Positions 2,679-11,809 of a DNA stretch of 11,809 nucleotides are shown here, in pieces. The stretch lies in the IMG/VR virus record IMGVR_UViG_2563366941_000003. One strand, given 5' to 3'. Within the stretch, counting starts at the first letter, position 1. The number at the start of each line of letters is the position of its first letter. The DNA is from a virus (lineage: Duplodnaviria > Heunggongvirae > Uroviricota > Caudoviricetes). The position numbers were made by a program, and so were the translations under genes. The notes beneath the pieces are model-generated. The model saw only the letters and a program-made list of their open reading frames with translations, ran no database searches and was not told where the DNA came from.

Positions 2679-3365
2679 TCACTCCTTCTCTTCTTTTCCG
2701 TAGTGGAGTTGGCCAATTTTGATAAGAGGGCGTCCCTGAGATTTGCGGTGTAGATTGGTATCGCGCAGAGAATACACACAGCCACAATATTCCTGCTGAT
2801 AGAATTTTTCGCGCTTGCTGATTTCAATCATACGGGACGAGCCGCCCTGCTTGCGCCAGTTATAATCCCAGTACACCATACCCGGATAATGCGCAACAGC
2901 TCGCCGCCCACACTCGTTAACCTGCTGCATATTTTTCCAGCGTGAAATGCCCAGTGAACTGCTGATCACACTGAAACCATTTTCAGCAGCGTACAACGCT
3001 GTCCGCTCAAAACGCATGTCAAAACACATGGTACAACGGATCCCCCTCTCAGGCTCCCATTCCATTCCTTTGGCACGTTCAAACCAGTTGTCGGTGTCGT
3101 AATCAGCATCGATAAACGGCACGCCGTGTTGTTCAGCAAAGCGAATATTTTCATCCTTACGAATTAAATACTCTTTCTGAGGATGAATGTTCGGGTTGTA
3201 GAAAAAGATGGTGTAGTCGATTCCCGAGGCCTGAAGCGCCTCCATCACTTCACCGGAACATGGAGCACAGCAAGAGTGCAGTAGTAGTTTGTTTGCCCCG
3301 TTTGGGAGCTCCAATTTAGGCCGTTTGAAATCAGCAATAGTCATAAATATTTTTATTGGGGTCAT
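2679..3365 (-). CDS. queH: QueH-like (DUF208) epoxyqueuosine reductase homolog
   Basis: N-terminal [11 protein letters not shown] signature plus CTMCFDMRF and EYCGC cysteine motifs typical of DUF208/QueH Fe-S proteins. Start ambiguous between ATG 3363-3365 and ATG 3342-3344; neither has a clear Shine-Dalgarno. Confidence 0.65.
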
Positions 3366-4763: not shown

Positions 4764-5429
4764 TCAAATAAAACCAGCTGCCTTCCGGCGTTCGTATTCC
4801 TGTTTCAGCCGTTCAATTGGCGTTGGCCCTTGCGGGTGTTTCGCCCCTTCCAGTTGTCGTCGCACTGGCGGAACACTCATCCCGTTACCAACATGCTTTG
4901 CCCATTTCGTCAGTTGCCGTTCCGCAAGTCGTTTTAACTCACCCTGCGTCATCTGGCGCTCAATCCCTCTGGTACGCATTTCGAGGCAGATGTGGTACAG
5001 CACAGGCTGAGGCCACGGATATTTGTCGCTTCCGTCATATCGCCAGGACTCATCACGCCAGCGGCGGTACTCCTCCATCACAGCATCCACCGTCAGGCCA
5101 AATGGATTGGCCCCGCTTTCTGAAATCAGCGCCACAAACTCAGCCAGGTCCGGAGGCCATGTTTCACCCGCCCGGCAGCGGTCCATGCACTGGCGGCAGA
5201 CCTGTCGGATTTGCTGCTCAGTCATCGCGCCAATCTGTGCAATCCAGAGCTTCGAAGGTGCGGCCCCGTTCTTCTGGGTCCAGCGGTTCGAATAAACCTC
5301 CCCCATGAGTTCCCACAGCTTCCAGACCGTTTCCGTCGCTGATAAATCCGTTTTCACGTTCCCACTGCTCACGTGCTGCCCGAATTTCCTGAACTGCCCG
5401 TGATGCGGTGCCACCTGGTGCTGCTGCAT
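4764..5429 (-). CDS. Lambda P-like replication protein (DnaB helicase loader)
   Basis: Recalled lambda P aligns over MTEQQIRQV..., WPPDLAEFVALISE and YPWPQPVLYHI. Strong AAGGGGG Shine-Dalgarno 6 nt upstream of the ATG at 5427-5429. Confidence 0.75.
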   Translation of the reverse strand: MQQHQVAPHHGQFRKFGQHVSSGNVKTDLSATETVWKLWELMGEVYSNRWTQKNGAAPSKLWIAQIGAMTEQQIRQVCRQCMDRCRAGETWPPDLAEFVALISESGANPFGLTVDAVMEEYRRWRDESWRYDGSDKYPWPQPVLYHICLEMRTRGIERQMTQGELKRLAERQLTKWAKHVGNGMSVPPVRRQLEGAKHPQGPTPIERLKQEYERRKAAGFI

Positions 5430-6258
5430 GGTTTACCCCCTTGCTGACTGGCTTAACCTGCGCCCTGACGTGATTTACGTGACGGGCGAATTTCTGCTCC
5501 CACTGAACCTGCGTGAAAACTTTCCCCTCCGCTGCCCAGTAGTCCCGGAAAGCGGCAAGTTCAGCAGGTGTAAATTCCGGCTCCGGCAAAGCCATCCCCC
5601 ACAACGCAGCCCGTCGTCGAAAATCCGGCGACGGATGCCAGTCATCGACCATCGGAAATTTCCCGATGGGTTCGCTCAGTCCATCCAGGGATGCAGGTTC
5701 TGCTGCCTGCAACGGCGTACCACTCGACTCACTGGTCGGAGCACTCTCGCGCACGTGCGCGTTATGTGTGGGGTTTAATTCTTTATCTGTATCTTTATCT
5801 GTCGTGACTCGTCGTGACATGTCGTGACATATGCGTGACTCGTCGTGACACCCCTCATTCTGTTTTCGTAATTTTTCCCTCTCGCGCTGCGCTCTCTTGC
5901 GCTCTGCCGGGGATTTCGCGGTTTGTGAAACGTTGCCATTGTCCTCTTTCAGTACCTGGCGTTTTTCCCATCCGGTGATTAAATCTCCATCAAGTACCCG
6001 CCCCTGCATTGCCTGTAAAATTGAATCAATTACTTCTTCCGTCACATCAAGCGCACTTGCTAAATCTTCCGTCGTGACATCAATGTGACCACGTAGTGAC
6101 ACGCCGTGACATGTCGTGACATTTCGTGACGCGCTCACCAGAAGGTGGATATACACTGCCATCACTGTTGCAATTGGCTGCCCTGACACCCTGGCAATTG
6201 TTCGCCACTTAGGGTCATTTGGCATGTCATGCCATAATCTGAGCCAGGCGTTAGCCAT
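5218..6258 (-). CDS. Replication initiator (O-like): N-terminal replisome-organiser domain + DnaT-like C-terminal domain; 3' end uncertain
   Basis: ATG at 6256-6258 with GAGGTG Shine-Dalgarno; GTG at 6262-6264 is the track start. C-terminal segment GKFPMVDDWHPSPDFRRRAALWGMALPEPEFTPAELAAFRDYWAAEGKVFTQVQWEQKFARHV closely matches the E. coli DnaT C-terminal region as I recall it. The open frame runs 212 nt past the P start. Confidence 0.7.
   Translation of the reverse strand: MANAWLRLWHDMPNDPKWRTIARVSGQPIATVMAVYIHLLVSASRNVTTCHGVSLRGHIDVTTEDLASALDVTEEVIDSILQAMQGRVLDGDLITGWEKRQVLKEDNGNVSQTAKSPAERKRAQREREKLRKQNEGCHDESRICHDMSRRVTTDKDTDKELNPTHNAHVRESAPTSESSGTPLQAAEPASLDGLSEPIGKFPMVDDWHPSPDFRRRAALWGMALPEPEFTPAELAAFRDYWAAEGKVFTQVQWEQKFARHVNHVRAQVKPVSKGVNHAAAPGGTASRAVQEIRAAREQWERENGFISDGNGLEAVGTHGGGLFEPLDPEERGRTFEALDCTDWRDD
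5801..5850. repeat. Iteron cluster 1: five GTGAC-core repeats at 10-11 bp spacing, flanked by an AT-richer tract (5776-5800); candidate replication origin inside the initiator gene
   Basis: GTGAC at 5804, 5814, 5824, 5835, 5845. Lies in the linker region of the O-like gene, as lambda ori does; the AT-richer tract is on the P-proximal side. Confidence 0.6.
6071..6130. repeat. Iteron cluster 2: six GTGAC-core repeats at 10-11 bp spacing within the 5' part of the initiator gene
   Basis: GTGAC at 6074, 6085, 6096, 6106, 6116, 6126. Same core and phasing as cluster 1, about 220 bp away. Confidence 0.45.
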
Positions 6259-6329
6259 ACTCACCTCTTCTGATACCGAATCTTTTTACTCACAAATTGC
6301 CGGAAGTGATCCGGTATGAATATTGCGAG

Positions 6330-9032: not shown

Positions 9033-9603
9033 TTCACCCTCCTGAGGGTTGGTAATTAAGGAGTTCTCCACTGGTCAGGTGGAGTGCGTGCGCCGGACAC
9101 GGGTGAGCATCCGGCACTGACAGTTTACTGAAAGGATATGTCCCTGAAAAGTCAGGGCATAACGCGAAAGCGCACGGCGAAATTGGTCTCTCTGTACGGT
9201 GTCGTTAAATTTAGTTCGACCGTGCGCTTCCGGTTGTGGCACTCCGCGAAATGGCGCGGCGGTAAGTATGGCTGGGGTTTCCTCCATTGCTCCAGAAAAT
9301 GCACCGGGTTGTCAGGTTGACCATACGCTTAAGTGACAACCCCGCTACAACGCCCTCTGTTATCAATTTTCTGGTGACATTTGGCGGTATCAGTTTTACT
9401 CCGTGACTGCTCTGCCGCCCTTTTTAAAGTGAATTTTGTGATGCGGTGAATGCGGCTATGCGCACGCGGAACAGTTAAAGCAGTAAGGCGGTATTTTACG
9501 GGCGTAACGAGCATCAACTAACCCGGCGTTAATTGTTAACTGGTTAACGTCACCTGGAGGCACCAGGCACTGCATCACAAAATTCATTGTTGAGGACGCG
9601 ATA

Positions 9604-10072: not shown

Positions 10073-11809
10073 ATGAGTAAAGTCTTTATTTGCGCCGCCA
10101 TTCCGGACGAACAGGCAATAAAGGAAGAAGGTGCAGTCGCTGTAGCCACTGCCATTGAAGCCGGTGATGAACGTCGCGCCCGCGCAAAATTTCACTGGCA
10201 ATTCCTGGAACATTATCCGGCTGCTCAGGACTGCGCTTATAAATTTCTTGTCTGCGAGGATAAACCCGGTATACCCCGCCCTGCCCTAGATTCCTGGGAT
10301 GCTGAATATATGCAGGAAAACCGCTGGGATGAGGCGTCTGCTTCCTTTGTCCCGGTTGAGACTGAATCAGATCCGATGAACGTCACTTTTGACAAGCTGG
10401 CCCCTGAAGTACAGAACGCTGTCATGGTTAAGTTCGACACATGTGAAAACATCACCGTTGATATGGTGATTAGCGCGCAGGAACTGTTGCAGGAAGACAT
10501 GGCAACATTCGACGGACATATCGTTGAAGCGTTGATGAAAATGCCAGAAGTTAACGCCATGTATCCGGAGCTTAAGCTGCATGCCATCGGGTGGGTTAAG
10601 CATAAATGTAAGCCTGGTGCCAAATGGCCCGAAATTCAGGCAGAGATGCGCATCTGGAAAAAACGTCGCGAAGGTGAACGCAAGGAAGCCGGAAAATACA
10701 CGTCTGTTGTTGATCTCGCCCGCGCCAGAGCCAATCAACAGCACACTGAAAATTCAACAGGAAAAATCAACCCGGTCATTGCTGCCATTCATCGCGAATA
10801 CAAGCAGACATGGAAAACACTGGATGACGAACTGGCCTACGCTCTCTGGCCTGGTGATGTGGATGCCGGAAACATTGACGGCAGCATCCATCGCTGGGCA
10901 AAAAATGAAGTTATCGACAACGACCGCGAAGACTGGAAGCGTATCTCGGCATCAATGCGCAAACAGCCTGATGCCCTTCGCTACGACCGCCAGACTATTT
11001 TTGGCCTTGTCCGTGAACGTCCGATCGACATTCACAAAGACCCTGTGGCACTGAACAAATACATTACTGAATACCTGACTACAAAGGGCGTGTTTGAAGA
11101 TGAAGGAACAAATCAGAGCGCAACTGATACTCTCTCGTCGCCAGTACCAGAAACTGATGCAGTGGAAACGGCAATTCCGGACAACGAAAAAACCGAATGC
11201 AAAGTGGAAGTCGAACCATCTGTAGAACGTGAGGGGCCGTTCTACTTCCTCTTCACCGACAAGGATGGCGAAAAATACGGTCGCGCAAACAAACTTTCTG
11301 GTCTGGATAAGGCGCTGTCTGCTGGGGCTACTGAAATCACGAAAGAAGAATATTTCGCCCGCAAAAACGGTACATACTCAGGTTCACAACAAAATACTGG
11401 TGCATCTGACACGACCGCACAACCAGGGTCAGTAAAAGTTACCGCTGACGAAGTAAACAAAATTATGCAGGCAGCCAATATCAGCCAGCCTGACGCCGAT
11501 GAACTGCTTGCAGTATCACGTGGTGAATTTGTTGAAGGGATTAGCGACCCGAATGATCCGAAATGGGTTAAGGGGAACCAGACCCGCGATTCTGTGAACC
11601 AGAACCAGCAAGAAACGGAACAGAACGACCAGAAAGCGGAACAAAACAGCCCAAATGCGTTACAAAACGAGCCAGAAACGAAACAGCCTGAATCAGTGGC
11701 GCAACAGGAAGTGGAAAAAGTCTGCACCGCCTGCGGTCAGACCGGCGGCGGCAACTGCCCTGATTGTGGCGCGGTAATGGGCGACGCAACATACCAGGAA
11801 ACATTCGAT
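10073..11809 (+). CDS. recE: RecE-like exodeoxyribonuclease VIII, N-terminal 579 codons (3' end beyond window)
   Basis: ATG 10073 with an in-frame TAA 9 nt upstream and GAGG Shine-Dalgarno. Frame open to the last base of the window; missed by the ORF track because there is no stop. Segments LLAVSRGEFVEGISDPNDPKWVKG and C..C...NCPDCGAVMGDATYQETFD match the non-catalytic region of Rac RecE as I recall it. The N-terminal ~400 aa differ from K-12 RecE. Confidence 0.6.
   Translation, partial: MSKVFICAAIPDEQAIKEEGAVAVATAIEAGDERRARAKFHWQFLEHYPAAQDCAYKFLVCEDKPGIPRPALDSWDAEYMQENRWDEASASFVPVETESDPMNVTFDKLAPEVQNAVMVKFDTCENITVDMVISAQELLQEDMATFDGHIVEALMKMPEVNAMYPELKLHAIGWVKHKCKPGAKWPEIQAEMRIWKKRREGERKEAGKYTSVVDLARARANQQHTENSTGKINPVIAAIHREYKQTWKTLDDELAYALWPGDVDAGNIDGSIHRWAKNEVIDNDREDWKRISASMRKQPDALRYDRQTIFGLVRERPIDIHKDPVALNKYITEYLTTKGVFEDEGTNQSATDTLSSPVPETDAVETAIPDNEKTECKVEVEPSVEREGPFYFLFTDKDGEKYGRANKLSGLDKALSAGATEITKEEYFARKNGTYSGSQQNTGASDTTAQPGSVKVTADEVNKIMQAANISQPDADELLAVSRGEFVEGISDPNDPKWVKGNQTRDSVNQNQQETEQNDQKAEQNSPNALQNEPETKQPESVAQQEVEKVCTACGQTGGGNCPDCGAVMGDATYQETFD

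Follow-up and report, generated by a model that had tools for sequence, protein, structure and literature searches.

A lambdoid prophage of E. coli, integrated beside ompW, makes up the DNA analysed here (record IMGVR_UViG_2563366941_000003 of IMG/VR, 11,809 nt, hereafter the window), and the initiator gene of its replication module carries two clusters of a short GTGAC repeat within its coding sequence. The gene (346 aa, minus strand, 5218–6258) was delineated from its open reading frame (ORF) and translation and identified by matches in PHROG, Pfam and RefSeq. Among these are phrog_1408 (2e-116) and phrog_3729 (9e-93), both described as 'replication initiation protein'. Used as a query, the region 5218–6264 is 100% identical to E. 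coli strain 118UI, whose identical gene is named 'DnaT-like ssDNA-binding domain-containing protein' in RefSeq. Directly downstream, and overlapping the initiator stop codon, lies a lambda-P-like helicase loader (4764–5225, minus strand; Pfam Phage_lambda_P, 5e-16; phrog_109, 'P-like helicase loader', 2e-63; 'replication protein P' in RefSeq), followed by DUF1627, DUF977 and QueH. Upstream of the initiator are a YdaT/cII-like gene, a YdaS/cro-like gene and a divergent cI/DicA-like repressor gene.

From its N-terminus, the initiator comprises a winged-helix-like domain (N-domain), a basic helix, a linker that is disordered and, at the C-terminus, a DnaT-like domain. The DnaT-like domain (aa 201–267, coded at 5458–5658 on the minus strand) is matched by PF17948 (E=1e-17, 64 bits), and NCBIfam DnaT gives a partial match to the initiator that falls under its cutoff (7e-28). 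No Pfam or NCBIfam family was found for the N-terminal 135 aa, and comparison of the N-domain sequence with solved structures gave no match. The AlphaFold2 (AF2) model of aa 1–170, based on a 40-sequence alignment, has a mean predicted local distance difference test score (pLDDT) of 74, exceeding 90 over most of aa 11–40 and 61–90. It exhibits helices at aa 4–11, 16–25, 29–45, 63–70 and 74–84, a wing at aa 85–93 and a long basic helix at aa 117–135, which precedes the low-confidence linker. For the N-domain (aa 1–105, coded at 5944–6258 on the minus strand), the Foldseek search of the PDB returned only weak, insignificant matches (E >0.2), all of them winged-helix DNA binders, including RepA_N initiators, and the helix-turn-helix (HTH) family HTH_Crp_2 matched aa 57–86 with E=0.03. 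The N-domain is thus predicted, from the model and the weak Foldseek matches, to be a winged helix.

A recount reproduced exactly the two clusters reported in the initial annotation (five GTGAC copies at 5804–5849 and six at 6074–6130, at 10–11 bp spacing). On the plus strand the copies of cluster 1, here called array B, start at 5804, 5814, 5824, 5835 and 5845 (spacings 10, 10, 11 and 10 bp), and those of cluster 2, here called array A, start at 6074, 6085, 6096, 6106, 6116 and 6126 (spacings 11, 11, 10, 10 and 10 bp); the clusters are separated by 229 bp start to start, or 224 bp clear. Their assignment to the initiator gene was confirmed as well, with array B in the linker (5803–5849; gene nt 410–456, codons 137–152) and array A in the N-domain (6073–6130; gene nt 129–186, codons 43–62). 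Read in the gene sense, on the minus strand, both arrays consist of direct repeats, and the core extends to GTCACG in 5/5 copies of array B and in 4/6 copies of array A. The total number of GTGAC copies in the window is ordinary (22 vs 18 expected), but the two clusters hold 11 of the 16 copies on the plus strand. The densest cluster of any same-strand 5-mer within 60 nt is that of GTGAC at 6074, with 6 copies, while the maximum in 300 dinucleotide-preserving shuffles was 4. Tandem Repeats Finder likewise reports period-10 arrays at 5801–5849 and 6096–6130. Three other plus-strand copies, at 9333, 9374 and 9403 (within 9333–9407), are 41 and 29 bp apart and non-periodic, and are probably due to chance. 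Short tandem repeats of period 20–21 (2.1–2.3 copies) occur at 831–875 and 11600–11647, outside the replication region.

Relatives of the initiator gene were collected by tblastn and pattern scans, which yielded 86 loci, 83 of them long enough for analysis, from Gamma-, Beta- and Alphaproteobacteria and phages (e.g. Aeromonas pAEv1818, Pseudomonas phi1 and Ralstonia Firinga). With the conserved DPK motif as an anchor, an array was called where one NNNACG core occurred three or more times, and was assigned to B in the linker zone or to A in the N-domain zone. By this definition array B is present in 60/83 loci, array A in 46/83 and both in 38/83, and prophages of Escherichia, Aeromonas, Pseudomonas, Bordetella, Acidovorax, Ralstonia and others have the two arrays at homologous places in the gene. 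A and B share one core in 36 of the 38 loci, and five types of core are represented among these (GTCACG in 23, CGAACG in 7, GTGACG in 3, GCAACG in 2 and GTAACG in 1). Permutation of the labels (100,000 rounds) gave a maximum of 27 matched loci and never 36, although this and the Fisher values overstate independence, the loci being phylogenetically related. No further core clusters were found within 1.5 kb on either side of the gene, including in the relatives with array B alone. The gene immediately downstream, a P-like loader in the window, is a DnaB-type helicase in Firinga, and in pAEv1818 and phi1 it is annotated as replicative helicase or replication protein P.

On the protein alignment the core classes are interleaved, which implies that switches took place repeatedly and independently. 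One such switch can be followed between an Erwinia locus of the GTCACG class (L107) and an Enterobacter locus of the GTAACG class (L110), which share 68% nucleotide identity. At aligned repeats of array A, at the inverted copies that accompany array A and in array B, GTCAC is replaced by GTAAC, and the changes are mostly synonymous (Val GTC to GTA), leaving the peptide unchanged. These concerted switches of the core, which are hard to explain otherwise, together with the agreement of cores in nearly all loci that have both arrays, support one suggestion of the initial annotation for cluster 2, namely a second array bound by the initiator, and indicate that it serves the same recognition specificity as cluster 1. 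Another locus, L143, has a hybrid array A, in which three CGAACG copies are followed by two or three GTGACG copies (gene nt ~120–200), and a GTGACG array B (~355–385); it looks like a specificity switch caught midway.

The initial annotation had allowed that repeated codons of a conserved protein segment might explain the repeats without any binding or origin activity. However, the 10–11 bp period places the core in all three reading frames, where it is translated as S-R, V-T and C/G-H, so that it is not a codon or peptide repeat. The choice of synonymous codons points in the same direction. In 21 genes of the GTCACG class, the loop defined by landmarks was compared with the rest of the gene: Val is encoded by GTC in 46/55 cases in the loop vs 23/156 elsewhere (p ~1e-20, a value that ignores kinship), Thr by ACG in 47/59 vs 16/84, and Gly by GGT in 22/23 vs 22/119, while the spacers between the cores vary. 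Some features would nevertheless agree with a protein-level constraint, or with slippage junk devoid of DNA-level function: loci of the GTCACG class show fair conservation of the peptide that array A encodes (ASRNVTRGHxDVT), R56 is nearly invariant and G57 invariant, and the number of repeats shifts by slippage. Yet neither would account for the strong synonymous preference for the core, for the concerted change of A and B over five classes, by synonymous substitutions in the pair L107/L110, or for the occurrence of array A at two positions in the protein and in either orientation, always with the core of array B. The explanation by repeated codons alone was therefore ruled out, and the broader reading as protein constraint or junk is already contradicted by the present evidence and is extremely improbable.

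In the gene sense, array B is followed directly on its 3' side by a purine-rich AT tract, ACAGATAAAGATACAGATAAAGAATTAAAC (5773–5802, minus strand), which is the presumed DNA-unwinding element (DUE), the five GTCACG copies of array B being the presumed origin iterons. The AT-richer tract noticed earlier beside cluster 1 was confirmed as the regional minimum of GC content (0.325 at 5760–5799 vs ~0.5–0.65 nearby), and it contains a period-6/12 repeat. Array B and the tract together correspond to codons 137–162, between the N-domain and the DnaT-like domain, and the pLDDT of the linker encoded by array B is below 50–60. A tract of this kind recurs in the relatives, in the form of (GATAAA)n, (GAGACA)n or (GAGAAG)n: in 59 of them the 40 nt after array B have an AT content of 0.60 vs 0.42 in the N-domain (higher in 55/59) and a sense-strand purine content of 0.72 vs 0.54. 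Just past the AT tract there is a perfect 14-bp GC palindrome, CGCGCACGTGCGCG (5748–5761), which recalls the palindrome that flanks the AT-rich region of lambda ori. Comparable palindromes were found in two relatives (L003 and L004), both with a DnaT-type C-terminal module, and to judge from this distribution the palindrome travels with that module. Neither DnaA boxes nor promoters were found above chance in or near the arrays. The interpretation of cluster 1 as an origin resembling lambda ori is supported by the comparison with relatives, in which array B and the AT tract lie at the junction of the N-terminal and C-terminal domains in 60/83 loci and follow the N-domain. We conclude that array B with the adjoining AT tract is likely to be the replication origin.

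The modular structure of the initiators provides a further line of evidence. Megablast matches to the initiator gene split at 5780–5805 of the window, at array B and the AT tract, which is where the recombination breakpoints of the relatives lie. In phage Evi the same N-domain is joined to another C-terminal domain, and five copies of cluster 1 are retained along with four of cluster 2; Pseudomonas phages with other C-terminal domains possess the same arrays. Conversely, YdaU of Rac-SA53 combines a DUF1376 N-terminal domain with a DnaT-type C-terminal domain and exhibits the linker repeats GTTCAAACACC/GTTTGAACACC, and PPompW_14040, with yet another N-terminal domain and again a DnaT-type C-terminal domain, has several copies of TTTGGGT(G/T) in the linker (these repeats were located at 3070–3150 of L004 and 3055–3260 of L005). 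They are presumably the iterons of the respective initiators. Since the arrays are kept with the same N-domain and replaced with other N-domains, the repeats belong to the N-domain module. As is expected of origin iterons, the repeat co-varies with the DNA-binding domain, with five core classes, and the arrays follow the N-domain rather than the C-terminal domain. The arrays are thus real and conserved, are under selection at the DNA level, travel with the N-domain and co-vary in sequence.

The same observations bear on the question whether some other factor, a host protein or a neighbouring phage regulator, binds the arrays for packaging, recombination or transcription control. HTH proteins are indeed encoded nearby (YdaS-like, YdaT-like and DUF1627). 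Nonetheless, the arrays co-occur with the N-domain across very different neighbourhoods and hosts, the core changes with the N-domain lineage, another N-domain on the same C-terminal domain is accompanied by different repeats, and the combination of an array, an AT tract and a helicase loader is the layout of an origin; this alternative is very unlikely.

Array A differs from array B in its context. According to the AF2 model, its six direct GTCAC(G) copies encode a loop and a β-hairpin (aa 44–62, pLDDT ~70–75) between the helices at aa 29–45 and 63–70. A single inverted copy of the core (6041–6045, plus strand), which codes for ..DVT.., is located ~30 bp downstream of the array in the gene sense. 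An inverted copy is found at the homologous place in many relatives, and its sequence follows the core class, with CGTGAC accompanying GTCACG cores, CGTTGC accompanying GCAACG cores and CGTTAC in L110. The length of the loop differs among homologues, with indels in multiples of 7 codons, i.e. two repeat units. No AT-rich or purine-rich tract was found beside array A, where the AT content equals the background (0.45, vs 0.65 after array B). The suggestion that cluster 2 is a duplicated origin was therefore dismissed, as no AT-rich element adjoins it.

Array A is also the more variable of the two. Its copy number ranges from 2 to 10 across the relatives, and its position and orientation change: in a Xanthomonadales-like branch it is found ~45 nt further upstream, in a different loop, and in L154 and L149 it is inverted, L154 having five inverted copies at 9-bp spacing in another loop of the N-domain (gene nt ~65–105). 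Fewer than 3 copies are present in 22 of the 60 relatives that have array B, so array A is not essential. Because of this variation in number, position and orientation, and because about a third of the relatives are devoid of it, array A is read here as an accessory array for the same initiator, rather than as a second origin.

Taken together, these results make it probable that both clusters are iteron arrays of the initiator, with array B and the AT tract as the origin and array A as an accessory element that cooperates with it by looping or wrapping of DNA. According to this model, the winged-helix N-domain would recognise both arrays, and on array B the initiator molecules would be aligned on one face of the DNA at 10–11 bp intervals and open the AT tract, whereupon the C-terminal domain and the P-like loader would recruit the host DnaB helicase. 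Array A would supply accessory iterons, placed within a tolerant surface loop of the DNA-binding domain ~230 bp upstream and without an unwinding element of their own; it would recruit extra initiator and join the complex on array B by looping or wrapping of the intervening DNA, thereby stabilising it and tuning origin firing. Three parts of this model are what we infer: the binding of the arrays by the N-domain, the activity of the origin, and whether array A acts positively or negatively. For array A the cooperative role is favoured, a negative role is nearly as likely, and a role as a fork barrier is possible.

Several observations weigh against the cooperative model. The frequent absence of array A from relatives with array B has been mentioned above, as has the kinship of the loci that underlie the covariation statistics. 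The winged-helix assignment of the N-domain is weak, given the Foldseek E-values >0.2. The inverted arrays of L154 and L149 fit poorly to a rigid looped architecture, and the distance from A to B, which varies between 191 and 297 bp across the relatives, shows no conserved helical phase (R=0.27). Variable orientation and the lack of helical phase would fit a titration or roadblock role equally well.

Array A could accordingly exert negative control, either by titration or 'handcuffing' of the initiator, in the manner of the additional iterons of P1 (incA) or F (incC), or as a roadblock to transcription from the early promoter; in the latter version, binding of the initiator in the 5' part of its own gene would place the initiator and loader genes under autoregulation and restrict transcription across the origin. 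Either form of this alternative we regard as possible but less probable than not. It would be in line with an array that shares the core of the origin array and lacks an unwinding element, is dispensable in many lineages, occurs in 2–10 copies at variable position and orientation, and shows no phasing with array B. Each of these traits is typical of control iterons such as those of P1, F and RK2. Besides, array A is on the transcribed path from the cro-like promoter region to the origin. However, a limit on copy number is not usual in the lytic replication of phages, array A does not overlap any promoter-like site, and the A-to-B distance stays within 191–297 bp even though array A occupies two different places in the protein. 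So narrow a band suggests a distance-dependent interaction with the origin, not simple titration.

A different role would follow if the initiator bound to array A stalled the leftward fork or its helicase, and so made replication unidirectional or triggered the switch from theta to rolling-circle replication. There is a precedent in phage SPP1, in which gp38 firmly bound at a second site, oriR, has been proposed to stall forks (PMC6316719), and array A is present on only one side of the unwinding element, past array B. On the other hand, the orientation of array A is not fixed (L154, L149), many relatives are without it, and array B should block forks equally; we therefore consider a fork barrier unlikely. 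Rather improbable as well is the idea that array A is a cis-capture device, by which the nascent initiator would load co-translationally onto the DNA that encodes it, so that replication would be preferentially cis-acting. It is prompted by the location of the sites in the first 190 nt of the gene and by the fact that synthesis of the N-domain has been completed by the time translation arrives at the array-B region. If it were true, defective or competing genomes would be barred from the protein, and switches in the specificity of the protein and of its sites would stay genetically locked.

Origins inside initiator genes have been described for lambda (PMC6022878, PMC7466680), for oriL of SPP1 (PMC6316719) and for pSK41 (PMC5703833). 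The present system shares with lambda ori and the O gene the location of the origin in the linker-coding middle of the gene, between the N-terminal and C-terminal parts, with iterons towards the 5' end of the gene and an AT-rich, strand-asymmetric tract towards its 3' end; in mosaic relatives of both, the iterons go together with the N-terminal domain, and in both a P-like loader gene follows. The description of the initiator as 'O-like' in the initial annotation is thus apt with respect to architecture, but it does not extend to the protein family, as Pfam Phage_rep_O matched neither the whole initiator (E ≤0.01) nor the N-domain (E ≤10). Lambda iterons, four in number, are ~19 bp long, dyad-symmetric, each bound by a dimer of O, and spaced about two turns apart, whereas the repeats here consist of an asymmetric core of 6–7 bp (GTCACG) every 10–11 bp, in agreement with the earlier remark that the unit is much shorter than that of lambda. 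Furthermore, the C-terminal domain here is DnaT-like, and the second array in the region coding for the DNA-binding domain is absent from lambda.

In SPP1, gp38 binds direct repeats within its own gene beside an AT-rich DUE, and a second binding region, oriR, exists (PMC6316719). Direct repeats with an AT-rich tract inside the initiator gene are common to both systems, as is, on the present reading, a second binding region for the initiator; however, the second site of SPP1 is a full origin with its own DUE, 13 kb away, while the second array described here is ~230 bp away, in the same gene, and has no DUE. The Pfam family Phage_rep_org_N matches neither the initiator nor the N-domain. Weak PHROG matches to phrog_4880 ('replisome organizer', 4.5e-5) and phrog_10469 ('DnaD-like helicase loader', 4.8e-7) were obtained, and close relatives of the N-domain are named 'phage replisome organizer' at NCBI. 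In pSK41 it is the N-terminal domain of Rep that binds the Rep boxes, which occupy the centre of the rep gene, and the central protein segment encoded by ori is a dispensable linker (PMC5703833). The AF2 model weakly matches the structures of RepA_N initiators (4pta, 4pql and 5kbj; E ~0.8–2, insignificant), but there is no match at the level of sequence families, and RepA_N plasmids have a single cluster of boxes.

A second cluster of initiator repeats outside the minimal origin, without an unwinding element, is also found in the control iterons (P1 incA, F incC and RK2) and in the bipartite origin of P4 (ori/crr). P4 requires both of its clusters of short repeats. Those clusters are intergenic or downstream of the gene, and kilobases apart in P4, whereas here the array is coded inside the DNA-binding domain of the initiator itself. 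A search of a collection of open-access literature on GTCACG iterons, on replication regions of Stx phages and on second iteron clusters in phage initiator genes did not turn up any account of such an organisation. The modules classed as Eru types in Stx phages were considered and turned out to be unrelated.

The number of repeats in array B is polymorphic. The viral-contig scan yielded nothing but near-identical copies of the E. coli type, which were unusable for covariation; of 78 such contigs, 60 carry 5 copies in array B, 15 carry 4, 2 carry 6 and 1 carries 3. Gain or loss of one unit (10–11 bp) frameshifts the initiator just after the N-domain, while two units (21 bp) keep the frame. The polymorphism of the array-B zone was observed in L025, L067 and L046, and among the frameshifted examples the protein of L025 ends in ..SRQIKIQIKN* and that of L067 in ..TSHDR*. 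Such repeat-slippage frameshifts explain the many 'partial replisome organizer' proteins of 150–165 aa in the databases. The length variants could represent prophage decay or a slippage switch. As a corollary to the cis-capture idea, given that ~20% of the E. coli copies of the gene are frameshifted by slippage of the 10–11 bp units of array B, the length of the array could be an on/off switch of prophage replication.

Compared with textbook origins embedded in genes, the new features are a very compact iteron, with a 6-bp core at each helical turn, a second array embedded in the codons for the initiator's own DNA-binding domain, and at least five specificities within one family, with both arrays switched in step each time. 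This makes the family a natural system for studying the co-evolution of initiator and origin specificity, and a DNA-level code within a coding sequence, in which the functions of DNA and protein should be separable by synonymous recoding of the repeats. The analysis also predicts the origin of a widespread module: of 5,426 complete E. coli genomes, 2,564 contain all or part of it, and it is found in many Proteobacteria.

A few minor observations concern the relatives and the neighbouring genes. Six metagenomic homologues of the N-domain (P0050, P0080, P0084, P0102, P0111 and P0119) are short proteins (178–193 aa), in whose C-terminal part HNH endonuclease domains (PF01844/PF14279) replace the DnaT-like or other replication domain. 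The ORF of the P-like loader extends to 5429 (4764–5429, minus strand), and ~210 nt of it overlap the 3' end of the initiator gene in a different frame. In this long ORF the match to Pfam P begins at residue 55, upstream of the RefSeq start at 5225, and the 482-aa profile phrog_15931 covers the initiator and the P-like protein as a single protein. Possibly the start of the loader is set wrongly, or an O-P product is made by fusion or frameshifting. The homologue of the epoxyqueuosine reductase QueH is encoded at 2679–3365 (minus strand) of the window. Finally, the 118UI record also contains hokD, dicB and ydfB/C (L001, 5069–5224), which are typical of Qin/Rac-like cryptic prophages.

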